Sequence record: NC_073065.1
Length of the DNA: 45,901 nucleotides
From: Escherichia phage vB_EcoS_Zar3M
Strand: one strand, 5' to 3'
The notes beneath the pieces were generated by a model that worked only from the letters and a program-made list of their open reading frames with translations, did no database searches and was not told the DNA's origin. The position numbers and the translations under genes are program-made. The stretch's first letter is position 1, and the number at the start of each line of letters is the position of its first letter. Of the stretch, positions 17,219-30,231 are shown piece by piece.

Positions 17219-19861
17219 ATGGCAGATCAAGCGGCAGGCATCACGCTGAAGGCTGATGTTGCACAAATCAGAACGGCAAATACTGTGCTGGACTCCTTCG
17301 CACAGAAATCCGAGAACACAGAAAACAAGGTTAAGAAATTAAACGACACCCTCGGCAAATCCAAAAAGGTGACGAGTGACGCCGCGGGCGGAATGGAGAA
17401 GCTCGCGACTGAATCGCAGCGCGCAGCCGATGGNANGACAAAACAGGNGCGNCTTGCCAACAGGTTAGGCATGTCGACCAAAAACCTGGGCTTTGCCTCG
17501 CGTAACGCCGCATTCCAGTTACAGGATATCGCAGTTACGCTTGAGATGGGGATGCCTGTTCACCGCGTCATGCTTCAGCAGTTACCGCAGCTAACTGGGG
17601 CGTTCGGCGGACTGGGTAACACGCTGCGTTTTGTTGCGGGCTTCCTCGGCCCAGTAGGGGTCGGCCTTGCCGCCGTAACGGCAACGTTAGGCGTGGGCGT
17701 GGCAATTACGTCCCGCGCGGAGAACCAGATCGCCNCGCTTAACAAGACGCTGGCACTTTCCGGTAACATTTCCGGCCTGACGGCAAACCAGATCCTGGTG
17801 CTATCTGAGAACGCCGNGCGCNNGGGNGGGNNGTTCCGCAANANGNGNGACACAANCCNGGCGNNGGNGGNGGNGGGTGTGAAAGNGGGNGGNGACTTCG
17901 GCGCACTGGNGAAAGTGGTGAATGACTTTGCGAAGGTGTCCAGCCAGCCGATCGAGGATGTGGTCGCGGCGGTGGCGAAGCTGTCAACCGACCCGGTAGG
18001 CGGCTTGCGAGCATTGGCTGATAAGTATCACGTCGTAAACGAAGCGCAGATCCAGCAGGTGCAGTCGCTTGTGGATATGGGTCGCGAGACAGACGCGGTT
18101 GCGTTGGCTAACAAAACCGCCGCAGCGTCGTTTACGACTATGACCAACGATATTAAGTCCAACATGGGTACGCTTGAGCGTTCGATGAACGTAGTCACAT
18201 CGGCAGCGAAATCCATGTGGGATGCCATCCTGGATGTTGGACGCGCGCAGTCCTCGAATGAGTCCGAGATGAAAGCGCGTGAGTCATTGCAGCGACTGAC
18301 CACGGCTTACTATGCCGAGATGAAAGCGGTAAACGCTGCCGGTGGGGTGATGACCGAAGCGCAGAAAGCGCGTATTAACATGCTTTACAGCGAACTGGTC
18401 GCCCAGGAGAAGGTGGTGGCGTCGCTCACCCTGCGCAACCGTGCCGAGCGGGACAACNCCCGCCCCNGGGAANAAGNNNNAAAGGNGAANGAANAGGCAA
18501 ACCNCACCGCCCGCNNCCNCGCCGCGTTTGNGAAGGAGTACGCAACCAACGCGAAGCGGCGAGCCGACGAGATCGCCCGCCTCAATTTGCTGAATAAGCG
18601 CGGTGTTATTAACGAGAAAGAGCTTGCCGAGGCGGTGAAGCAGGTAAACGAGCGTTACAAAGACCCCGCCCCGAAGAAGGCCGCCGCTGTTCGAGTCGAT
18701 GCCGGGCTGAAAATGCTGGAAGTCGCGCGAAGCGAATTAGCCCAGCTTCGTGAGTCTGGAAAGCAGATCGAAGCCAACTCTTCGACGCAGACCCGCACGC
18801 AACGCGCGCAAGCGGCCCTTAACAAGCTGATTGCCGACAACGAGCAGTTAATCGCTGCGAGCAAAGAAAGGGCGCTGACGGCAGCAGAGAAGCAGCAAAT
18901 GGTCGGGTTCGGAGGCGTTAAATCTGTACGCGAGCAGATCGTCGAAGAAGCCAAATTGCTGGACGCGAAAGAGAAGCAGGTCAAGGCGCACGCGCAGATC
19001 GACGCCTTCGTTAAGAACCAGAACGCCGAGCTAAAAGCCACCGCGGCGGGCTATGCGCTTTCCACTCGCGAAGCGGCTAACCTGCGCGAAGAATTGCAGC
19101 TAATTGACCGCCTTAAGCGGGTGGGCGCTAGTGATACCGATATTGATCTGGCGGTGTCTAAGCTGCGCGAAGTGCAGGAAGCACAGACCGGTGCTAACGC
19201 CTCGCTATGGGATGGATTAAGCCGCGGGCTTAAGGATAGCGTTGATGAAATGGGTAACGGCTATACGCAGATGGCGTCACTAACAAAATTCACGTTCGGC
19301 GCTATGCAGGACACGATGAACGAGTTTTTCGAGACTGGCAAGCTGAACGCAAAGGATATGGTTAAGTCCATCCTGAGCGAATTAATCAAGCTGGCTACAT
19401 CGCAGGCGTTCAAGTCCATCGTTAGCGCTTTNGGNGGNGNNGGNGGAAAAAANGGNTTNTTNGGNGNTNTNTTNNCCNGCCNGACTAANAANGNGGNNGG
19501 NGGNGNGNNCGNNGGGGGNAATCTCGCGGCCTNTTNGGGGNAAGTGGTAAGCCNNCCTNCCTTTTTNNGTTNCGGNGTCCNGGNGTTCGCTAAGGGTGCT
19601 GGATTGATGGGGGAGGCTGGACCCGAGGCCATCATGCCGCTGAAGCGCGGGCCAGACGGTAAACTGGGAGTTGCCGCTGCCGGTGGGGTCGGTGGGATGA
19701 TTGTAACGACCAACGTTAATATGGGTACCGGTAAGACGGATACCAGTGTGAGCGGACCGGACCCACGCACCGCGCAGGCGTTCGGAAAGCAAATCACCGA
19801 GTCGGTCAAGGCCGAGATTGTGAAGGCGACGAAACCGGGTGGTGTACTTTACAAACNATGA
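17219..19861 (+). CDS. tape measure protein
   Basis: 880-aa helical Ala/Gln/Lys-rich protein with Gly-rich hydrophobic C-terminal region; downstream of G/GT. Confidence 0.85.
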   Translation: MADQAAGITLKADVAQIRTANTVLDSFAQKSENTENKVKKLNDTLGKSKKVTSDAAGGMEKLATESQRAADXXTKQXXLANRLGMSTKNLGFASRNAAFQLQDIAVTLEMGMPVHRVMLQQLPQLTGAFGGLGNTLRFVAGFLGPVGVGLAAVTATLGVGVAITSRAENQIAXLNKTLALSGNISGLTANQILVLSENAXRXXGXFRXXXDTXXAXXXXGVKXXXDFGALXKVVNDFAKVSSQPIEDVVAAVAKLSTDPVGGLRALADKYHVVNEAQIQQVQSLVDMGRETDAVALANKTAAASFTTMTNDIKSNMGTLERSMNVVTSAAKSMWDAILDVGRAQSSNESEMKARESLQRLTTAYYAEMKAVNAAGGVMTEAQKARINMLYSELVAQEKVVASLTLRNRAERDNXRPXEXXXKXXEXANXTARXXAAFXKEYATNAKRRADEIARLNLLNKRGVINEKELAEAVKQVNERYKDPAPKKAAAVRVDAGLKMLEVARSELAQLRESGKQIEANSSTQTRTQRAQAALNKLIADNEQLIAASKERALTAAEKQQMVGFGGVKSVREQIVEEAKLLDAKEKQVKAHAQIDAFVKNQNAELKATAAGYALSTREAANLREELQLIDRLKRVGASDTDIDLAVSKLREVQEAQTGANASLWDGLSRGLKDSVDEMGNGYTQMASLTKFTFGAMQDTMNEFFETGKLNAKDMVKSILSELIKLATSQAFKSIVSAXXXXXGKXXXXXXXXXXXTXXXXXXXXXGXNLAAXXGXVVSXPXFXXXXVXXFAKGAGLMGEAGPEAIMPLKRGPDGKLGVAAAGGVGGMIVTTNVNMGTGKTDTSVSGPDPRTAQAFGKQITESVKAEIVKATKPGGVLYKX

Positions 19862-19865
19862 TAAA

Positions 19866-19896
19866 ATGGCCCTCACTACAACGTGGGGGCTTTTTT
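19866..19896 (+). terminator. terminator-like hairpin between tape measure and tail tip genes
   Basis: GGCCC-N12-GGGGC stem followed by TTTTTT, immediately before ATG at 19897. Confidence 0.4.
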
Positions 19897-20496
19897 ATGT
19901 CACAAGGCACAATCACTCTAACGAACGGAAGTAAGACCGTCACGGGCGCGGGAACGGCGTTCCTGAGCGAGATCGGGAAGGTCCGCGTATTTACCCGCAT
20001 CGACGGCAACGACTACACCGGAAAAATTGCGGCATTCAACTCTGACACTGTCATCACCCTGGCTGATAACTGGGCAGGCCCGACAAAAGCCGGTGCGGCT
20101 TATGAGCTAATCNAAGCGCACNACCCNCGGNNAAGCGAANGGCCTTATTNCTGGCANATGCAATTGCAAGGCGGNGGAGACGTGCAGTTGGCTTTCCGGN
20201 CCGNGGAATTGCAATTTGGTAATGGTTACGGTCANAACATCGCTGACGGCCCGAACGCCGAAACGAAACAGTTCCCCGTGCAATTCATCGGACTGACTAC
20301 TGACAAGTGGTGCGACCCTAAACTGGTTTACAACTTCCTTCGCGGGCACTTCGTCAAGCCGTTTGTCGTCACCGCGCCGGATGGCGAAACAGGTTTATTC
20401 GTGGTCGAGCGTTCGAGCTTGTCGTACACAGACAACGGGCATAACACGGCAACGGTGTCCGCCACCCTTAAGACTGCTATTGGATTCGTAAGATGA
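19897..20496 (+). CDS. minor tail protein (gpM-like position) with fibre-like N-terminal domain
   Basis: First gene after tape measure; N-terminus MSQGTITLTNGSKTVTGAGTAF resembles the N-terminus of tail fibre 27312..29135 (MAAGTLSVTNNSKAVVGVGTTF). Confidence 0.5.
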   Translation: MSQGTITLTNGSKTVTGAGTAFLSEIGKVRVFTRIDGNDYTGKIAAFNSDTVITLADNWAGPTKAGAAYELIXAHXXRXSEXPYXWXMQLQGXGDVQLAFRXXELQFGNGYGXNIADGPNAETKQFPVQFIGLTTDKWCDPKLVYNFLRGHFVKPFVVTAPDGETGLFVVERSSLSYTDNGHNTATVSATLKTAIGFVR

Positions 20497-21281
20497 ATAA
20501 ACTATATCGTGAGGCGACGCGCTTTGACCCATCGGGCCGCGTTCGCCTGATTCACATTGACGCGCAGGACGTGGAGCCTGGCGACGGCGCGATCGGCGCG
20601 GGCCATCACTATTTTCACTACTGCTTTATCCCGCACACTGCCGAAGATATTGCCNCNGNGGGNGGNGNNGNGNANAANNNAAAACCNAAANCCNTNTTNT
20701 TNGGNGGGNNGGNGTTNNAATTTTGGCCCTTNNATNTNTCCNGCCTTAACTTCNCCNCANCAACGGCANCANAACCNCAGCTAACCATCGTTGATATTGG
20801 CGGCATAATCACCCGGNTGTCGCTGAATCACGACCAGCTACTGGGCGCGAAGGTTGAGATCATTGATACGTTCGCGAAGTTCCTGGATAACGGATCGGAC
20901 CCAGACCCAACGCAAAAACGTGTCCAGGAGTATTACATAGACTCACAGGTAGGGCGCAATCCGGGCAAGCAGATCACCTTCGCGCTATCCTCCCCCGCGG
21001 ATATGGAGGGGCAAGTAGTACCACGCCGCCAGATCATGAACATGTGCGAATGGGCGCTCAATGGGAAGTACGCCAGCGGTGACGGTTGCACATGGAACCT
21101 TGCGCAGCCCGGAATCAAGTATTACGACGAGCGCGGAAACGAAGTCATCTCGATGACTATGGACCGATGCGGTGGATGCTTGTCGGACTGCTATCTTCGT
21201 TTTGGACAAGGTCTTGCGGATCCAAAAGCCGCAGTGTTGGACTTCGGCGGTTTTCCTGGGTCGAAATTGATTAAGGGGTAG
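20493..21281 (+). CDS. minor tail protein L (lambda gpL-like)
   Basis: Cys-rich C-terminal half (CEWALNG...GDGCTW...CGGCLSDCYLRF...FGGFPG) typical of gpL family; ATGA coupling. Confidence 0.7.
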   Translation: MNKLYREATRFDPSGRVRLIHIDAQDVEPGDGAIGAGHHYFHYCFIPHTAEDIAXXXXXXXXXKXKXXXXXGXXXXFWPXXXSXLNFXXXTAXXXQLTIVDIGGIITRXSLNHDQLLGAKVEIIDTFAKFLDNGSDPDPTQKRVQEYYIDSQVGRNPGKQITFALSSPADMEGQVVPRRQIMNMCEWALNGKYASGDGCTWNLAQPGIKYYDERGNEVISMTMDRCGGCLSDCYLRFGQGLADPKAAVLDFGGFPGSKLIKG

Positions 21282-21283
21282 TC

Positions 21284-22024
21284 ATGTTGACGAAAAAGGT
21301 TAAAAGTGATATCGCCNCACACGTTGCGGCATGTNTGCCGGAANAANCCNGNGGGNNGGTNGTCNTGGGGGGNCGNAAGNAAGTNTTCANCCCGTGCCNG
21401 AACGTCTTCGAAGACCCGACCGGCGTGCGCTCGCGCAAAGACGCTTTCACGATTAGTGATATGGCCTGGATGGATGCCGAGGATATGGGCGACGTCGTGC
21501 GTGTAGTCCACTCGCACCCAGGTCAGCGCGAGTTAACCCCGTCGTTGGGCGACGTTAACGGATGCAACGGCAGCGGCGTCGTCTGGACCATCACTAACGA
21601 ATATGGCGACTTTATCGAGATCGACCCGGAAGACCCGCCGCTGGTGGGTCGCAGATTTGTTCTCGGAATTACGGATTGTTATGGCCTCGTTATGGACTGG
21701 CATAAAAAGCAGGGCGTAAACCTGCCAGACTTCCGCGTACCGTACAACTGGTGGGAGACAGGCGAAAACCTGTATATGGACAATTGGTATGGAGCGGGCT
21801 TCCGGGAGTGTGCGGAGAATACGCCAGGGGCGATGGTCATCATGCAGATTAGCGCGCCAGTGCCTAACCATGCCGGAATCTACCTTCCGGGCAACCAACT
21901 ACTACACCATATCTACGGCAGCCTGTCGAGCGTGATCCCCTTCCGGGCAGGATTTTTCCGCGACAATGTGGTTAAATGGGTACGACATAAAGACCTACCG
22001 GGGAATATCACAGAATGGCAATGA
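21284..22024 (+). CDS. tail protein K (lambda gpK-like; JAB/MPN plus NlpC/P60 domains)
   Basis: JAMM-type VHSHP motif and NlpC/P60-type Cys in GITDCYGLV; position between L and I. Confidence 0.75.
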   Translation: MLTKKVKSDIAXHVAACXPEXXXGXXVXGXXKXXFXPCXNVFEDPTGVRSRKDAFTISDMAWMDAEDMGDVVRVVHSHPGQRELTPSLGDVNGCNGSGVVWTITNEYGDFIEIDPEDPPLVGRRFVLGITDCYGLVMDWHKKQGVNLPDFRVPYNWWETGENLYMDNWYGAGFRECAENTPGAMVIMQISAPVPNHAGIYLPGNQLLHHIYGSLSSVIPFRAGFFRDNVVKWVRHKDLPGNITEWQ

Positions 22025-22632
22025 CCACATTTAAATTGTACGGCGTCTTAGGACGTCGTTTTGGTAAAGTGCATAAGCTGGATTGCTTCACACCGGGCGA
22101 GGGTATCACCGGCCTGTGCGTTAAGTTACCCGGCTTACAGGACTTTCTAATGTCGGCCCACCTGGACAACATGATGTTCAAAGTGCGCAAGGGCAATCAC
22201 ACCATGACCGGCTATGATGAGCTGGGCGNGTTCCACGGCGACCGCGTAGTGACCATCNCNCCGGTTATGNNGGGNGNAAAAAGNGGNNNGGGCCAATTNN
22301 TGGGGGGGGNNGNGNTNGNGGNGGGGNNGTTNTNCGCCCCNGCNCTTGCNCCCCCCCCTTTTGGGGNTTNGGNNGCAACNGCNNCCNCTNTCGGTNCGGN
22401 GACGTTTTCGTTCGGCATGTCGCTTGCGATGGGCGGTGCTATGCAATTACTGTCGCCACAACCGAAAGGATTGCAGACCCGGCAGGACGTGGATAACAAA
22501 GCGTCGTACGCGTTCGGCGGACCGGTAAACACAACCGCGCAAGGCACGGCACTTGGTGTATTATGGGGCGAGCGTGAGATCGGCGGCGCTATTATTTCCG
22601 CCGGAATCGTAACCGAGGACTTGAACGAATGA
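22015..22632 (+). CDS. tail assembly protein I (lambda gpI-like)
   Basis: Position between K and J; N-terminal TTFKLYGVLGRRFGKVHKLD ubiquitin-like region; Gly-rich n-masked centre. Confidence 0.6.
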   Translation: MAMTTFKLYGVLGRRFGKVHKLDCFTPGEGITGLCVKLPGLQDFLMSAHLDNMMFKVRKGNHTMTGYDELGXFHGDRVVTIXPVMXXXKXXXGQXXGGXXXXXGXXXAXXLXPPPFGXXXAXXXXXGXXTFSFGMSLAMGGAMQLLSPQPKGLQTRQDVDNKASYAFGGPVNTTAQGTALGVLWGEREIGGAIISAGIVTEDLNE

Positions 22633-25600
22633 CGATTATCTACGACGTCACAGGGCATAAAGGCGGNGGCGGCAAACAGCACACCCCGCAGGAAACGCCG
22701 GANANCCNGCNTTCCCTGGCTAAAANCCGCATNTTGCTTGCGCNNGGGGNNGGGGAATTCGAAAGTATTACCNGCGCCNGCGAATTGNGGCNGNGTGTAT
22801 ACCTGGNCGGCACGCCGANCCAGAACGCCGACCTGTCTGAAAACTTCCCNGGCGCGCGCGTGGAGTTCCGCCCCGGTACACAGCACCAGGATGTGATCCA
22901 CGGATTTTCAGCGGTGGAAAGTGAGCAATCCGTCGGCGTAAAACTGGAAAACGGCACGCCGTGGGTGCGCCAGATTAACGACACCAGTCTTGACGCCGTG
23001 CGCATTCGTGTTGGTATCCCGGCCCTGTACACCAACGAAGATAATGGCGACCTGGTGGGCGGGCGCATCGACTATAAAATCGTTGTGTACACAGATAACG
23101 CCGACCCGCGCGAGTTCAACTTCGCTGCCGTTGGTAAAACAATGTCGCTGTATGAGCGCGACCACCGCATCGAATTACCGCCGAACGTGAACACCGGCTG
23201 GCGCGTGGAAGTGCACCGCACAACGGCAGATTCCACATCGGCGAAAGTGGTGAACGATATCCGGGTGCAATCAATCACTGAGATTATCGACGCCCGCCTG
23301 CGCTACCCGCAAACCGCGCTGTTGTTCGTGGAGTTCGACGCTAAAGCGTTCCAGAACATCCCGCGCGTATCCATTAAGTGCAAAGGCCGCAAAGTGCTGG
23401 TCCCGAACAACTACGATCCGATCAACCATACCTATTCGGGCGACTGGGATGGCACGTTTAAACGCGCGTGGACGGATAACCCTGCGTGGCACTGGTACGA
23501 TATTTGTATTACGGAGCGCTTCGGCCTCGGTCGCCGGATCAAACCGCAAATGCTGAACCGGTACGCGCTCTACCAGATTGCGAAGCGCTGCGATCAACTG
23601 GTCAGCGACGGCAACGGCGGGCAGGAAATACGATTTAAGAATGATATGTACATCCAGTCGCAGACAGACGCCTGGACCGTGCTTAAGGATTTAGCAGCTA
23701 TCTTTGCCGGTATGACCTGGTGGGGCAACCAGATGTTGAATATCGTAAGTGACCAGCCGGTCGCAGCGGTATCGCACACTATCACCAACGCCTCGGTTAT
23801 TGATGGCAGATTCGACTACGCGTCAGGGAGCCAGAAAACTCGCTATTCCACGTTCGCGGTAGCATACGGCAACCCTAAGAACCACTACGACGATGCCATC
23901 GCAACGGGACAGCGTGTCGAACTGGTACGCCGCCATAAGATTAACCGTCTGGATATTACGGCGATCGGCTGTACGCGTGAATCAGAAGCGCAACGCCGGG
24001 GGCACTGGGCGCTAATCTCCAACCAGCTTGACCAGCAAGTTAGCTTTAAGGTTGGCATGGAAGGACTATTCTTTATTCCTGGTAGTGTAGTCGCGATCGC
24101 CGATACAAACATTTCTGGCGGCTTCGAGACACGCGGCGGTCGCCTGTTGTCGGACCCCGGCACGCGTACCGTGCTTAACACGGACAGCGAAATCACGTTC
24201 CNCCCAGGTGATAAATTCCTGGTACGCACCGATAGCGGTAATGTGGAGACTCGCGAGATCGCCAGCGTCAACGGCAACAAGGTTACGCTAAAAACCGCAC
24301 TGGACGCCGACCCGATTCCAGACCAGCCGTTTTGCGTTGATGGCGACGATATCCAGTTGCAGAAGTTCCGCATAACCGACCTGGAATATGACGACTCTAC
24401 CAGCACTTTTTCGGTGCGCGGGATCGAGTACAACGACAGCAAGTATGATGCCGTTGATAATGGCGCGCGCCTTGATCCGGGTATCTTCACGCAAGTGCCA
24501 GACGGTGTAATGAAGGGGCCAGAGTCCGTGACCATCACTCCGTCGCAGATTTCATCGCAAGGCCAGCTAATCACCAACGTGGATATTGTTTTCCCGCCGG
24601 TGAAAGATGCCGTGGTGTATGAAATACAGTGGCGACGCACCAGCTTGCAGAATATGGCGGTCCAGTGGGGAAACGACTGGGTAAACATCCCCCGCACGGC
24701 ATCGAACGGCGCTCACATCCCTAACGTGTTCTCCGGTAACTACCAGGCACGCGTCCGCGCGATCGGTATGGGCGAGATTTCGTCCCCGTGGGTGTCGTCC
24801 GCTATCACGCCGGTGGAAGGTCGTCTCGGCGGTCTTAACGCNCCTATCNTCNCCAACGCGNTTTNGGGCCNCCNCCAAATTTTNTGGAAGNGGNGCCANA
24901 ANAACNCCNCGNNGGATATTTCGTACACCGAGCTTGAGGTCCGCAAGACGGGTGAAACGGAATGGAAGTTCCTAACCAACGTCCCATACCCCGGGTCGGA
25001 GTATGCGCAAACGTCGCTGGAGTTCGGCATCTATCAGCAGTTGCGCGCCCGTGTCGCGGATAAAATCGGCAACCTGTCGGACTGGTCGGCCCCGTTTGAG
25101 GGGCAGGTGAGTGACAAAGTTGACGAGTATATGAAGGGGCTTGATGACGCGTTCTTGACTTCCGAGGATGGTAAACACTTCCAGGAAGCAATAGACACGA
25201 TCCCGCAGGGTATTTACGAGGCGATGCTCACCGACGCGCAGCAATTGTTCAACGCCCGCGCNGAGTATAAAGGGATTTATGCGGAAATAACGGTGGCATA
25301 TAACGTGGCGGCGGACGCCCACAAGGCGGTCGCGCAACTTGAGACGTTGATCGGCACTCGTCTTGACGATGCAGAAGCGTCGATCCACACGTTGCAGACC
25401 GCGCAAAGCACGCATGAACAAGCGTTCGCCCAGTATCAACAAACGGTTGCCGCTAAGTTCGGGGAGCAGGAATCNGCNATNCAGCAGGTGCAAACGGCAA
25501 CGGCAGACGTAGCGGGCGCGCTGGCGGAGTACAAGACCCAGGTCGCGGCACAGTTCGGTCAGCAGTCCGCCGCTATCGAGCAGAAGATGACGTCCACGTT

Positions 25601-26051
25601 TAACCATGCCGGTGGCAACGCCACATACCGCCTTAAGGCTGGCGTGACGTATAACGGGACTTACTACGATGCCGGTATGCAGCTTTCAGTTGTTGCGGAA
25701 GGTGGCGAGGTTAAATCCCGCATCGCGTTCAAGGCGGACCAGTTCTACATCATGCACCCATCTAACGGGTCGCTTTCGTCCGCGTTTATCGTGGACGGCG
25801 GCGCGGTGTATATTGACACGGCACGCATCAAGGACGCGACTATCAACTTCGCGCAGATCACGGACACGCTGCAATCGAATAACTATGACGGCTACTCGCG
25901 TGGCTGGCGCTTAGGGAAAGACGGAACGTTTATCAACCTGGGAACCGGTAACGGTGGCGGGGCGATGAAAATGACGAATGACACAATCAGCGTAAAGGAT
26001 TCTAACGGAGTTTTGCGAGTTCAGATTGGTAAAATCACGGGGGGTTGGTGA
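22629..26051 (+). CDS. host specificity / tip attachment protein J
   Basis: 1140-aa protein after gpI with ATGA coupling; size, position and beta-rich sequence as in lambda J-type central fibre proteins. Confidence 0.8.
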   Translation: MTIIYDVTGHKGXGGKQHTPQETPXXXXSLAKXRXLLAXGXGEFESITXAXELXXXVYLXGTPXQNADLSENFXGARVEFRPGTQHQDVIHGFSAVESEQSVGVKLENGTPWVRQINDTSLDAVRIRVGIPALYTNEDNGDLVGGRIDYKIVVYTDNADPREFNFAAVGKTMSLYERDHRIELPPNVNTGWRVEVHRTTADSTSAKVVNDIRVQSITEIIDARLRYPQTALLFVEFDAKAFQNIPRVSIKCKGRKVLVPNNYDPINHTYSGDWDGTFKRAWTDNPAWHWYDICITERFGLGRRIKPQMLNRYALYQIAKRCDQLVSDGNGGQEIRFKNDMYIQSQTDAWTVLKDLAAIFAGMTWWGNQMLNIVSDQPVAAVSHTITNASVIDGRFDYASGSQKTRYSTFAVAYGNPKNHYDDAIATGQRVELVRRHKINRLDITAIGCTRESEAQRRGHWALISNQLDQQVSFKVGMEGLFFIPGSVVAIADTNISGGFETRGGRLLSDPGTRTVLNTDSEITFXPGDKFLVRTDSGNVETREIASVNGNKVTLKTALDADPIPDQPFCVDGDDIQLQKFRITDLEYDDSTSTFSVRGIEYNDSKYDAVDNGARLDPGIFTQVPDGVMKGPESVTITPSQISSQGQLITNVDIVFPPVKDAVVYEIQWRRTSLQNMAVQWGNDWVNIPRTASNGAHIPNVFSGNYQARVRAIGMGEISSPWVSSAITPVEGRLGGLNXPIXXNAXXGXXQIXWKXXXXNXXXDISYTELEVRKTGETEWKFLTNVPYPGSEYAQTSLEFGIYQQLRARVADKIGNLSDWSAPFEGQVSDKVDEYMKGLDDAFLTSEDGKHFQEAIDTIPQGIYEAMLTDAQQLFNARXEYKGIYAEITVAYNVAADAHKAVAQLETLIGTRLDDAEASIHTLQTAQSTHEQAFAQYQQTVAAKFGEQEXXXQQVQTATADVAGALAEYKTQVAAQFGQQSAAIEQKMTSTFNHAGGNATYRLKAGVTYNGTYYDAGMQLSVVAEGGEVKSRIAFKADQFYIMHPSNGSLSSAFIVDGGAVYIDTARIKDATINFAQITDTLQSNNYDGYSRGWRLGKDGTFINLGTGNGGGAMKMTNDTISVKDSNGVLRVQIGKITGGW

Positions 26052-26054
26052 TAT

Positions 26055-26076
26055 AGGGGCTTCGGCCCCTTCTATT
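26055..26076. terminator. bidirectional terminator between J (+) and reverse operon (-)
   Basis: AGGGGC-TTCG-GCCCCT hairpin with T-rich tail; flanked by convergent stops. Confidence 0.5.
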
Positions 26077-26689
26077 AATCGTATTTAGCCGCATCTATTG
26101 CGAGTATGGATGGTGAATAATAAACGCCGAGCGGCCCTGGTGTGTGGGCGACTTGCTTAGATATCGAATAAATGCTTGTTCCGGATGCGCCGGATTGTGA
26201 TTCATAAATCGCGTGCCCACCAATCTGAGGGGTGGGAACCGAGTTTATTGCCGTTTGTTGTGGCGATACGGCACATGTATACCCCAGATTAACATCAAAA
26301 GACAGACCATTTATCGGTATTTGGTGGGCCTCCAGCGGCAGCATTTTCCCGTGGTACACCATATTCCCAGCAGAATTATAGAATGCGATCCCGTAGTCTC
26401 CTGGCGGGGTAACCATATCACTAAAAGCATAAACCTTAATCCATCCGGGATTGTCGGTCTTGTCTAGCCGGAGCGCATGGTAACCCCCGTTATTTATGTG
26501 AGAGAATGCGGTGTACGCTCGCCCGCCCATCCTCACAAAGAAAAAGCACACGCGATCGAATGGTATTGGCGTTGTAAAAACAGAACCGCTATACACCCCC
26601 ATATCACCGCGACTTATTAAATTAACAGGCGTAAAATCCGGGCTTAACCAAATGGACCCATCCGGCTTTGTGATCTGCATTCCGTACAT
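26075..26689 (-). CDS. hypothetical protein (204 aa), Gly/Tyr/Ser-rich
   Basis: Intact ORF; ATG one nt after upstream stop (TAAcATG); third gene of reverse-strand lipoprotein operon. Confidence 0.45.
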   Translation of the reverse strand: MYGMQITKPDGSIWLSPDFTPVNLISRGDMGVYSGSVFTTPIPFDRVCFFFVRMGGRAYTAFSHINNGGYHALRLDKTDNPGWIKVYAFSDMVTPPGDYGIAFYNSAGNMVYHGKMLPLEAHQIPINGLSFDVNLGYTCAVSPQQTAINSVPTPQIGGHAIYESQSGASGTSIYSISKQVAHTPGPLGVYYSPSILAIDAAKYD

Positions 26690-26690
26690 G

Positions 26691-26969
26691 TTACCCCCAA
26701 TACGTATATATAAATCTTGATTCGCCAGCGTTAAAGCCGCTCCAGGAGACAGTGTTGTCGCTTACGGATATTGATGGCGCACCCCAAGATGTGCCGTTCC
26801 AGGTATGCGTACCAACGTAACCTGCCTTTAAACTTTTCCCCGGCGGACGGTTGTGATACGTCTTGCTCCCGGATGGTTGTGTGAATTTGTCAAGAAAAAA
26901 AACCGGCGTTAACAGGCCTGTGACGTCACGACCATGTTCGTCATAAATCGCGTACCCATAGTTACTCAT
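26691..26969 (-). CDS. hypothetical protein (92 aa)
   Basis: ATG at 26969 preceded by GGAG; 8-nt ATGAGTAA overlap with lipoprotein gene stop. Confidence 0.4.
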   Translation of the reverse strand: MSNYGYAIYDEHGRDVTGLLTPVFFLDKFTQPSGSKTYHNRPPGKSLKAGYVGTHTWNGTSWGAPSISVSDNTVSWSGFNAGESRFIYTYWG

Positions 26970-27231
26970 TTCTACACTCCACAATTTCAAATTTATCTTC
27001 GCTTTGCCATCTGTGAACGAAAGTTACAAATTTCTGTGATGGGGCTACTCGGTATTGTTTTTCGCCAAATCGGTTTTCACGCACCGCGTTTAGTTTAACA
27101 GGGTAGCTATCGTTTACGGGGAATGTTTTAACCGCATATTGGCCTACGCAATCGATAGCCTTGTAGTTGCCGTCTGGCGATGCGGAGCAACCGGACAAAA
27201 GAACCGCACAAATCATAATTAAAGTTTTCAT
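26962..27231 (-). CDS. small outer-membrane lipoprotein (Cor/Llp-like superinfection exclusion candidate)
   Basis: ATG at 27231 with AGGAG RBS; signal peptide plus lipobox MKTLIMICAVLLSGCSASP; divergent from tail fibre gene. Confidence 0.55.
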   Translation of the reverse strand: MKTLIMICAVLLSGCSASPDGNYKAIDCVGQYAVKTFPVNDSYPVKLNAVRENRFGEKQYRVAPSQKFVTFVHRWQSEDKFEIVECRNE

Positions 27232-27311
27232 GGTATCATCTCCTATATTTGGTTGAGTTTTAGTATTACACCGCTCGATCAAGAATGCAACCAATTTACG
27301 AGGATTTAGCT

Positions 27312-29135
27312 ATGGCAGCGGGCACACTATCCGTAACGAATAACAGCAAGGCGGTTGTAGGGGTCGGGACAACGTTTACCGCGTTTAACGCTGGCGACTT
27401 CTTAACGCTGGTGGTAGGGCAAGTCCCCTACACCGTAGCAATCGCGTCCGTTGAAAGCGAAACCGCGCTTACGCTGGTGTTACCGTTCGACGGCCCAACG
27501 GCAACCGGCCTTGCGTGGGATGGCGTTAAGCGCGATACCATGTCACTGGCGACGATGGGCGTAACCGTACAGGCACAGAAAGCATTGCGCTTGATGCTTG
27601 CAGATGAAAACAACTGGCGTGCAATCTTCGGCGACGCTGAAGAAATAACCGTGACGTTGCCTAACGGGCAGGTAATGCAGGGTATGTCATGGGGATATCT
27701 GTCGCAGTTGATGAAACAGGTCGACCCAGTTGAGATGCGCAACCTGCAACAGCAAGCCGCCGCATCTGAAGCAGCCGCGCAGGGATACCGGAACGAGGCC
27801 GAAGGCTTCAAGACCGAGACGGCGGGCATTCGCGACGCCACCAATCAGATTAAGGCGGATACGCAGGCGATCCACGACGCCACTAATACCATCAAGACGC
27901 AGACTGACCTGATTAAGACTGATACTCAGGCCATCAAGGACCAGACGAACCAGATCAAGACTGACACCGGCGTTATTCGTGACGAAGCCAATATGGCGAA
28001 GACTGACGCGCAGGCCGCCAGCGCTGCCGCGCAGGGATTTCGCGATCAGGCCGAAGAATGGGCGCAAAGCGTAAACCCCGACAATCTGCTAACCAAATCC
28101 GGCAACCTCGCCGGGCTTGCGGACAAAAGTGCGTCGTGGGCTAACCTTATGCCGTCAGGACCGCTTCGCGTAGGTGCGGACCCCGTAAACACCCTGGACG
28201 CTGCGACTAAAGGGTGGGTGTGGCGCGGTCTTGATGACGTGGGGCTTTGGGGTTTACGCAATAACTACGCTTCAGAACCCGCAGGGGGTGCAGAAGTATA
28301 CGGCGGGCGCTTTGACTCCTCTGTGAACGTCGCAGGGACCGAAAAATACAGAATGTCGATACAGCTTCAGGGGCGTAATAACGTAGACGCCTGGACACGT
28401 TTGGCGACCGCTGACGTCCGCAGCATGGCGAACGCGGCGACGTGGGACTTTAAATATGATGGCAAGATTATTTTCAATAAGGGATTGAGTCCATCGTCCA
28501 CCTCGGCGTCGCCAGGTAATACCTACGTAACCCTTGCGAATACATGGATGGACAGCCAATACTCGGGACACGTCGGCTTTGTTGGAGGCGGGGCGGGGAC
28601 GAGTGGTGGCGGGTGGCGTAACTTTATTTCGTTCGGCGCGCTGATCCACCCGCCCACCGGTAACTCGCACCCCCATGCTATGATTGCGCAGGTCTTTGAT
28701 TATGATTTGGCGTCCGGGACACAGCCTAACGGCGATAGCGTTCGAAACACTACATTCAACCCCGAAGCATACGATATCACCTTCGGCAACAACTTAGGGA
28801 CTGTTAACTATATTTTCGCAAAGTCCCCGGTATCCGATAGGGCGCTGAAGCATGATATCGCCCGGATCGATACTCAAGTTGCGTACGATAACGTTATGAC
28901 TATGGAGTACTCGTCCTTTGTTTATAACTACGACAAAAAAGAGACGGTTAGACGTGGTTTTATCGCGCAGCAGTTGGAAGAGATCGACCCGCAGTATGTC
29001 CGCAAGTACACCAACGCAACCGGTAAAGAGTTTCTGGCATTAGATGAAAACGTCCTACTACTTGACCTAATCGCGACTGTTCAGCATTTGGCGGCGAAGG
29101 TTGAGGCGTTAGAAAGTAAGTTAGCGGAGAAATGA
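27312..29135 (+). CDS. tail fibre protein with C-terminal intramolecular chaperone (peptidase S74-like) domain
   Basis: ATG at 27312 with AGGA RBS; coiled-coil heptad-like repeats (IKADTQAIHDATNTIKTQTDLIKTDTQAIKDQTNQIKTDTGVIRDEANMAKTDAQ); C-terminus DRALKHDIARIDTQVAYDNVMTMEYSSFVYNY...GFIAQQLEEIDPQYV typical of auto-cleaving chaperone domains. Confidence 0.75.
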   Translation: MAAGTLSVTNNSKAVVGVGTTFTAFNAGDFLTLVVGQVPYTVAIASVESETALTLVLPFDGPTATGLAWDGVKRDTMSLATMGVTVQAQKALRLMLADENNWRAIFGDAEEITVTLPNGQVMQGMSWGYLSQLMKQVDPVEMRNLQQQAAASEAAAQGYRNEAEGFKTETAGIRDATNQIKADTQAIHDATNTIKTQTDLIKTDTQAIKDQTNQIKTDTGVIRDEANMAKTDAQAASAAAQGFRDQAEEWAQSVNPDNLLTKSGNLAGLADKSASWANLMPSGPLRVGADPVNTLDAATKGWVWRGLDDVGLWGLRNNYASEPAGGAEVYGGRFDSSVNVAGTEKYRMSIQLQGRNNVDAWTRLATADVRSMANAATWDFKYDGKIIFNKGLSPSSTSASPGNTYVTLANTWMDSQYSGHVGFVGGGAGTSGGGWRNFISFGALIHPPTGNSHPHAMIAQVFDYDLASGTQPNGDSVRNTTFNPEAYDITFGNNLGTVNYIFAKSPVSDRALKHDIARIDTQVAYDNVMTMEYSSFVYNYDKKETVRRGFIAQQLEEIDPQYVRKYTNATGKEFLALDENVLLLDLIATVQHLAAKVEALESKLAEK

Positions 29136-29140
29136 GAATA

Positions 29141-29164
29141 AGGGGCCATACGGCCCCTTTTTTA
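29141..29164. terminator. bidirectional intrinsic terminator between late (+) and replication (-) operons
   Basis: AGGGGCC-ATAC-GGCCCCT followed by TTTTTT; convergent stops on both sides. Confidence 0.65.
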
Positions 29165-29737
29165 GTTTGAGTTTTCCCAGTCCATTTTGCGCCGCACCAG
29201 CGGGCTTTCAAAGTATTCCTTGCCCTCAACTTCCACCAAAGGCCAGTCGTTCACAATCACGTACGGCTCCGCGATATCCTCAATCACGCCGTGCGCGCTT
29301 TGCGGCCCTAACGACACACCAACCAGGATAACCCCGGCAACTCGACGAGTGAGATACTCGCGAGCGCAACGTGCCTCAACCAGCCCCCTACGGATGCCGC
29401 TGGTGGCCTTAACCTCGTACGCCCAAACGGCATCAATCATATGTTCCCGGAAGTCGGGACCAGACTTTACCTTGCGTTTGCCGACCATGATAATATCGCC
29501 GCGGTCGATAGTGTTAGCGCTAAACAGGCCGGTACGCATTAGCAAACCTTGAGGGATACAGCTACGCCCGCCCGCCTGCCCTTCTAGGTACATGCCCGCA
29601 AACATCTCACCCAGCACACCTACAAGGCGGCTTTGTTTGCACGCGTCAGACTTTAAGCGCCACTGTTCAAACTCTATGCTTGCGATCATTGCTGCGAGGT
29701 GGAATTGTTTACCGGTTATTTCATATTCGCCGTACAT
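29162..29737 (-). CDS. hypothetical protein, possible PD-(D/E)XK nuclease
   Basis: GPDF...(18 aa)...YEVKA resembles a PD-(D/E)xK core; weak assignment. Confidence 0.35.
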   Translation of the reverse strand: MYGEYEITGKQFHLAAMIASIEFEQWRLKSDACKQSRLVGVLGEMFAGMYLEGQAGGRSCIPQGLLMRTGLFSANTIDRGDIIMVGKRKVKSGPDFREHMIDAVWAYEVKATSGIRRGLVEARCAREYLTRRVAGVILVGVSLGPQSAHGVIEDIAEPYVIVNDWPLVEVEGKEYFESPLVRRKMDWENSN

Positions 29738-29778
29738 TGTGAATCCCTCATTGATGCGGGCCGAAGCCCGCGATTAAA

Positions 29779-30231
29779 TTATTTAAGTGCGCCAGTCACC
29801 AGTGTTTTTTCCATGTTGCGGAAATCTTCCGGCGTCATGAGGATTTTGGACCCATCTTCGCCGGTGAGCACGACCATAGGCCGGGCGTCTTGATCTGCGG
29901 TGGGGCAACCTTTGAGGCTTTCAAACTGTTCTGCCGTTGTGTCGATCTGAATCTCGTCATGCACGGGCATGTAAGACTCGCCCAGCAGGGAGGCATACGC
30001 CACCAGGTCCACGATGTTATCTTCCTGGTGCTTACGGTGCTGTCGCACCAGCTTCAGGCAGATCAGGAAGGTCCAGGCTTCTTGCTCGGTCAGGTCGCGA
30101 CCGGTAAGCGCGTTAAACACGGCAGCGATTTGCTTAGCGCTGCGTTCCTCTTTCGCGTTGTCATAGCCGTTTTCTTTTCCGCGCTGTTCCATAGTGGTGG
30201 CGGCGTTTTTGCAGTATTCGTATGCTTTCAT
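29779..30231 (-). CDS. hypothetical protein (150 aa), all-alpha acidic
   Basis: Intact ORF with AAAAAGGAAAACACCATG start context; upstream promoter-like box with palindrome GCAACCAATTTATTGGCTGC. Confidence 0.45.
   Translation of the reverse strand: MKAYEYCKNAATTMEQRGKENGYDNAKEERSAKQIAAVFNALTGRDLTEQEAWTFLICLKLVRQHRKHQEDNIVDLVAYASLLGESYMPVHDEIQIDTTAEQFESLKGCPTADQDARPMVVLTGEDGSKILMTPEDFRNMEKTLVTGALK

Follow-up and report, generated by a model that had tools for sequence, protein, structure and literature searches.

Identification of a common N-terminal domain in the distal tail protein and the side fibre

The DNA analysed here (referred to as the window) is a stretch of 45,901 nucleotides from Escherichia phage vB_EcoS_Zar3M (NC_073065.1), a nearly complete Dhillonvirus genome. 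Two of its tail genes, both on the + strand, were examined: the gene of the distal tail protein (Dit; 19897..20496) and that of the side (lateral) tail fibre (27312..29135). We found that the two proteins begin with one common, ancient domain of about 73 residues, a seven-strand β-barrel (19897..20115 in the Dit gene and 27312..27530 in the fibre gene) that is referred to below as the module. BLASTP aligned residues 1-70 of each protein with a sequence identity of 38% (E=4e-8). Smith-Waterman alignment of the two N-termini (73 residues each) scored 107, compared with 27.4±5.1 for shuffled sequences; none of 5000 shuffles attained 107, by which chance similarity was ruled out. All other open reading frames (ORFs) of the window scored at most 46. 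At the level of profiles, the N-terminal part of the Dit hit several tail-fibre PHROGs, each at its N-terminus, and the fibre matched the Dit family, so that the two proteins matched each other's families, phrog_9922 and phrog_1980. An earlier note on this DNA had called the two N-termini related and had named pairwise and profile alignment as the check; both alignments were significant and bore the relationship out, although the common unit spans residues 1-73 and not the 25 or so residues that the note had given. AlphaFold2 (AF2) predicted the same seven-strand pattern in both modules, with pLDDT values of 88-98 for Dit residues 1-73 and about 95 for the fibre.

The module belongs to a large family

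A profile built from the two sequences was searched against 1.84 billion representatives (E<=1e-3, clusters at 50% identity) and revealed a family of 4087 clusters. Of the 155 matching proteins examined, 129 were fibre-like with a module copy that began at one of residues 1-15, and most family members are side fibres, of phages, prophages or F-type tailocins, with the module at their extreme N-terminus. Among the matching clusters, only the Dhillonvirus cluster combined the module with a gpM domain in one protein. A 44-sequence module profile matched only two kinds of chain in the PDB, 23gd_B, described below, and 25ve_A, the side fibre of an F2-pyocin; residues 5-71 of the latter were matched with E=1.5e-12 by module profile A2 and with E=2.9e-10 by profile A3. 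Both copies in the window belong to the profile family that matches the pyocin fibre PyoF13 at its N-terminal domain. Judged by this homology to solved F-type pyocin side fibres, the module in fibres is an attachment domain. No Pfam or NCBIfam model matched the module, even at E<=10. A word-indexed homologue search with the 72-residue module returned no match, and longer queries returned close relatives only.

About 25 of the 155 matching proteins were not fibre-like. These were very large metagenomic proteins of 1000-2900 residues with up to 10-13 tandem module copies and with PKD, NHL, SdrD_B or Peptidase_C25 domains (P0014-P0018, P0024 and P0033-P0042 in the representative search, with uninformative cluster names).

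Architecture of the distal tail protein

The Dit gene encodes a gpM-type protein of 199 residues that matched phrog_9922 over its full length. It lies directly 3' of the tape measure gene (17219-19861) and is followed by the gpL homologue (20493-21281), which is the gpM-type position. Residues 85-193 matched PF05939 (Phage_min_tail; E=1.7e-9) at 38.5 bits, just short of the cut-off of 39. Masked X residues coincide with this deficit, and PF05939 is present in the unmasked orthologues P0006-P0009. The gpM, or tail-tube-fold, ring domain comprises residues 80-199 (20134..20493) and shows 56-63% identity to the nearest plain Dits, P0010-13, which are 122-123 residues long and begin exactly at WPYYW, the motif that follows the module in the window. 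In the AF2 model, residues 1-73 folded confidently and apart from the gpM domain, and thus form an extra globular domain on the ring domain. Unlike the fibre anchors, the Dit has no stem helix after its module, which is joined to the gpM domain by a linker of 6 residues. The gpM half was poorly modelled (pLDDT 31-70) from a shallow alignment, and a Foldseek search with this model, poor in that half, gave no significant match.

The close orthologue P0008 matched PDB chain 23gd_B, "Distal tail protein gp20", with E=4.9e-121. This chain of 199 residues is 100% identical to the Dit of Oekolampad (BASEL phage, Bas18); it is an orthologue with the same succession of module and gpM domain and does not differ in kind. 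The 23gd entry also contains the hub gp21 and the J-like gp24, with two Dit chains per gpJ chain; our literature search found no paper describing it. The start at 19897 (MSQGT...) agrees with the position of the module at residue 1 in about 130 homologues and with the length of the solved Oekolampad chain, and we favoured it for these two reasons. An alternative in-frame ATG at 19858, located within the 3' end of the tape measure gene, would add 13 residues, and this start or one further upstream is used in P0006 (212 residues) and P0007 (218 residues). The fused Dit was present in all 155 full-length GenBank Dhillonvirus matches. From these comparisons we infer that the Dit itself is of an ordinary gpM type and that the module was fused to its N-terminus specifically in Dhillonviruses, as an exchangeable decoration of the ring.

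Architecture of the side fibre

The fibre gene encodes 607 residues from 27312; the length of 616 residues in the earlier note had been counted from an upstream ATG at 27285. The start at 27312 (MAAGT...) agrees with the module at residue 1 in about 130 homologues. The protein matched phrog_1980 over its full length, and its counterparts in related records bear the names tail fibre or lateral tail fiber. The AF2 model of residues 1-150 consisted of the barrel followed by a helix (74-105), two strands (111-115 and 121-125) and two further helices (127-135 and 139-149). The stem helix and the subsequent hairpin and helix pair (residues 106-150) form the rest of the conserved anchor (27531..27761), and the segment after the module is kept in N-terminal fibre homologues. 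The fibre thus has the PyoF13-type arrangement, with an extreme N-terminal barrel and then a stem helix, and the predicted barrel and long helix resemble the OB domain and stem of PyoF13.

The anchor is followed by a repetitive, coiled-coil-like shaft (residues ~151-262; 27762..28097), in which most of the fibre exchange boundaries described below were located. At the C-terminus, residues 508-563 matched PF13884 (Peptidase_S74; E=2.3e-11, 44.2 bits against a cut-off of 22). This S74 intramolecular chaperone (28833..29132) is predicted to be cleaved off at Ser508 (28833) within the Ser/Lys motif SDRALK (Ser508/Lys513). In its distal half (27957-29132), the fibre aligned in three segments to 8hqz_d, a T5-type L-shaped tail fibre chain, with E=2.4e-14 for residues 216-402 and 507-606; the S74 chaperone was part of this match and fell at the C-terminal end of 8hqz_d. 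Apart from the Dit chain 23gd_B, 8hqz_d was the only PDB chain that the whole fibre matched, and the match was confined to the distal part. The fibre had already been described as short, S74-ended and free of an obvious enzymatic domain, which was correct; the absence of such a domain fits a T5-type, putatively glycan-binding and auto-chaperoned fibre tip.

In Teewinot (P0002, 246 residues) and Maverick (P0003, 171 residues), the first fibre gene encodes little beyond the conserved anchor, which suggests split (two-gene) fibres or truncations.

Comparison of relatives with and without the Dit module

To understand whether the fibre depends on the Dit copy, we compared relatives that differ in the Dit. 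The set of tail-tip genes is the same in N15 and Salmonella phage S107, and both have a module-bearing fibre together with a plain Dit of 115 residues. The plain Dit P0011 is encoded on three contigs from metagenomes (L022-L024) that proved to be genuine Dhillonviruses. Their Dit has 123 residues and no module, and their gpL carries an insertion of about 155 residues. Identity between L022 and the window was 94% for the tail tube, 95% for the tape measure, 97% for gpK, 95% for gpJ and 97% for fibre residues 1-181. Since the N-terminus of the fibre is nearly unchanged in L022-L024, it works with either decoration state. The gpL-type hub protein of the window (20493..21281, + strand) matched PF05100. 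In L022 (10001-11609), gpL has 415 residues, and its insertion falls between the positions of window gpL residues 53 and 59; this insertion is about 40% identical to one that Klebsiella siphophages have in a gpL-type minor tail protein gene. None of the GenBank Dhillonviruses in our collection had a gpL insertion of the L022 type.

Eighteen Dhillonvirus genomes, the window included, were then compared, with identities expressed relative to the window. Both module copies were present in all 18. Identities were 79-97% for the fibre module, 85-97% for the stem (residues 74-140) and 67-94% for the Dit module, which varied independently of the fibre module; in L019, for example, the Dit module was 67% identical, the fibre module 95% and the stem 97%. 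The ratio of nonsynonymous to synonymous substitution (dN/dS), pooled over the 17 genomes other than the window, was 0.144 for the Dit module, 0.085 for the fibre module, 0.031 for the Dit gpM domain and 0.027 for the fibre stem (residues 74-130). All four segments were under purifying selection, and the Dit module was the least constrained. These four lines of evidence (the plain Dits of N15 and S107, the L022-L024 contigs, the absence of co-variation and the dN/dS values) indicate that the fibre probably attaches without need of the Dit copy. The earlier note had spoken of a common attachment module. The module is indeed common to both proteins and, from the pyocin homology, is an attachment domain in fibres, but a single attachment system made of the Dit copy and the fibre copy was not supported by N15, S107 and L022-L024 or by the missing co-variation.

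Putative docking of the side fibre on the gpJ shaft

Three independent cryo-EM studies of F-type pyocins placed the homologous fibre domain on the coiled coil of the central fibre; three fibre trimers grip this shaft, not the Dit (PMC13455828; PMC12874032; 10.64898/2026.02.24.707460). Two barrels of each trimer contribute to a ring of pseudo-six-fold symmetry (PMC13455828), the stem helices lie packed against the shaft, and one barrel per trimer remains peripheral and unbound (PMC13455828; 10.64898/2026.02.24.707460). The window gpJ was homologous to the central fibre of the F2-pyocin (E=3.3e-214; E=2.7e-17 for the C-terminal part), and gpL was homologous to the pyocin hub. Given this homology of hub and central fibre, the side fibre would be expected to dock here in the same way, on the coiled-coil shaft (residues ~827-990; 25107..25598, + strand) of gpJ, the counterpart of the pyocin central fibre. 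A candidate kink, IDTIPQGI, lies in this shaft (25191-25214, + strand); the acidic start of the shaft and a G-containing motif are common to the gpJ proteins of N15 and S107. The conservation profile of gpJ was flat (0.89-1.0) up to residue 1080, and no docking site stood out in it. As to published statements, the Bil preprint says nothing on the place of side-fibre attachment, and the Oekolampad LptDE paper deals with the receptor-binding protein only.

Taking these results together, we favour, with a probability of roughly 0.6, an arrangement in which the fibre barrel and stem are the anchor on the gpJ shaft and the Dit copy is an optional peripheral decoration that the fibre can dispense with. 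The barrel and the stem helix of about 30 residues would fasten the fibre to the virion, and this anchor would grip gpJ at residues ~830-990, as in the pyocins, and not the Dit. If the Dit forms a hexameric ring, as other Dits do, each tail would carry six of its barrels. These would most likely be an exchangeable tail-tip decoration, comparable to the OB-like domain of T5 pb9 or to the decorated Dit of phage Chi, and might give weak surface adhesion or a collar.

Several points weigh against this arrangement. The homology to PyoF13 ends at the module, and the stem has no detectable similarity. The placement on the gpJ shaft is extrapolated from the pyocins, as no structure shows a Dhillonvirus side fibre; PDB chains, those of 23gd included, gave no match to the N-terminal anchor of the fibre except the Dit chain 23gd_B. 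The insertion in gpL of L022-L024 could in principle replace the role of the Dit module, and a binding function of the Dit module is purely conjectural. Finally, as barrels form rings in pyocins, a contact between Dit and fibre barrels would be physically plausible.

This last point leads to the best of the alternatives, in which six Dit-borne barrels form a docking platform and the fibre barrels bind to them homotypically, so that the ring is extended around the Dit as a true common attachment system. The same domain is present on both partners, pyocin barrels pack side by side in a pseudo-hexameric ring (PMC13455828), and Ur-lambda and T5 anchor their side fibres at the level of the Dit (summarised in PMC13455828); the ubiquity of the fused Dit (155/155 GenBank matches) and of both copies (18/18 genomes) is also in its favour. 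However, N15 and S107 carry fibres with the same module on tails with plain Dits, the fibre N-terminus is 97% identical in L022-L024, where the Dit has no module, and the two modules do not co-vary, with that of the Dit being the least constrained segment. In addition, no PDB chain, 23gd included, contains the fibre N-terminus, and in pyocins it is the central fibre on which the homologous fibres are docked. We consider a docking platform unlikely and retain it because the barrels self-associate in pyocins.

A broader variant appears somewhat less likely again. Here, the Dit ring of six barrels would be a second homotypic docking station, between which and the gpJ shaft the fibres would switch (stowed on the Dit, deployed on the shaft) or which would hold a second set of fibres; on this view, the module would serve generally as a ring-forming "Velcro" domain, with tandem arrays of it employed in cellular surface proteins as well. 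We regard as improbable, and as slightly weaker than this variant, a regulatory or stowing role, in which the Dit module temporarily keeps the fibres (or the third, peripheral barrel of each) retracted, or else mimics the fibre anchor while the tail tip is assembled. Such a role could make use of the barrel that is peripheral and unbound in each pyocin trimer (PMC13455828; 10.64898/2026.02.24.707460), and the purifying selection on the Dit module (dN/dS 0.144) indicates that it has some role; the attachment site on the pyocin shaft, however, is well below the Dit, and sister phages without the module exist.

Fibre exchange occurs outside the module

The two module copies in the window had a DNA identity of 56.5%, and their longest exact word was 8 nt; the two modules of any one genome were 27-42% identical in protein sequence. 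The Dit module was 44-52% identical to fibre modules of the N15 and Citrobacter-prophage types and thus closer to these than to the module of its own fibre, from which we conclude that its capture is old. Low DNA identity, short words and closer modules elsewhere together led us to reject recent recombination between the copies.

Beyond residue 140, the fibre was strongly mosaic, with 24-53% identity in all Dhillonviruses but one. The breakpoints with respect to the 17 other Dhillonvirus fibres fell between residues 130 and 296, beyond both module and stem, and never within residues 1-73. Fibre swapping among Dhillonviruses therefore occurs distal to a conserved anchor of 130 residues and outside the module. 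The earlier note had offered acquisition of the fibre by recombination at the module, and this was not supported by the low identity of the copies or the position of the exchange points. Likewise, the view of the module as a recombination joint, through which the fibre or the Dit extension was recently acquired by homologous recombination between copies and which is a hot spot for swapping, agrees with a mosaic distal fibre behind a conserved module and stem but is largely refuted by the divergence of the copies, whose longest identical stretch is 8 bases, by the old capture and by the absence of boundaries inside residues 1-73, and we give it hardly any weight.

Comparison with known tail-tip systems

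The closest parallel is provided by the side fibres of F-type pyocins (PyoF13/PA0643/PA0646; PDB 25ve and 25vj), trimeric fibres with a homologous barrel at the extreme N-terminus followed by a helix. The F-type pyocins also have a lambda-like tail tip, with a hub and central fibre homologous to gpL and gpJ of the window. The two systems differ in the stem and distal parts, which have no detectable similarity, and in that attachment to gpJ is deduced here from homology. In addition, the pyocin fibre tip is R-pyocin-like and depends on separate chaperones, whereas the window fibre has a T5-type tip and an S74 auto-chaperone.

The plain PF05939 Dits of lambda (gpM), N15 (gp17) and T1 have the same gene position and the same ring domain as the window Dit, but comprise 109-117 residues without an N-terminal module. 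Decorated ("evolved") Dits are represented by T5 pb9, with its OB-like domain (PDB 4jmq), and the Dit of phage Chi (8vjh_B). Compared with these, the extra domain of the window Dit is N-terminal, is borne by a minimal Dit of the lambda gpM type and is homologous to a fibre anchor; the module had no detectable sequence similarity to pb9. The N-terminal particle-binding domain and neck helix of tailspike depolymerases (AP22 gp54, 4y9v; phi297, 4ru5; K64-1 S2-4, 9k4a) are alike at the level of the fold only, and these proteins are enzymatic spikes on other tail types.

Decorated Dits and fibre anchors were already known, and the present case is one of domain shuffling that reveals no new mechanism. 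The most useful by-product is the recognition of a large uncurated domain family, which unites two separately solved structures, 23gd for the Dhillonvirus Dit and 25ve/25vj for the side-fibre anchor of F-pyocins. A curated model of this family of about 4000 clusters would improve the annotation of fibre genes and their attachment ends in phages, prophages and tailocins. For host-range engineering of Dhillonviruses, the data suggest that fibre residues 1-130 be retained and the sequence beyond them exchanged. They also suggest that the Dit module, and the alternative insertion in gpL, are tolerant sites for display or deletion.

Genome context and sequence quality

The window is close to Escherichia phage vB_EcoS_PTXU06; in a megablast of 19000-30000, PTXU06 covered 100% of the query with an identity of 94.5%. 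A total of 577 N bases are scattered over the window, most densely at 15-23 kb, and give X residues in the translations, for example at Dit residues 74-115. At least part of the departure from 100% identity to PTXU06 is due to these N bases.

The tail-tip genes on the + strand have the same layout as in lambda. From the ORFs and this lambda-like order, we assigned the tape measure gene (TMP) and Dit and gpL genes described above, followed by gpK (21284-22024), gpI (22015-22632) and gpJ (22629-26051). Between gpJ and the fibre gene, three genes lie on the minus strand: an N15 gp23-like gene (26075-26689; phrog_425), an N15 gp22-like gene (26691-26990; phrog_557) and a Cor-like gene (26962-27294). 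In L020, L021 and L022, a DUF6453 protein and a small lipoprotein replace this minus-strand cassette. We also observed that the last ~60 residues of gpJ (25869-26048) co-vary with the cassette downstream: the gpJ end of the window aligned with gpJ of N15 and T1, and the ends of HK578 and Ioannina aligned with gpJ of S107.

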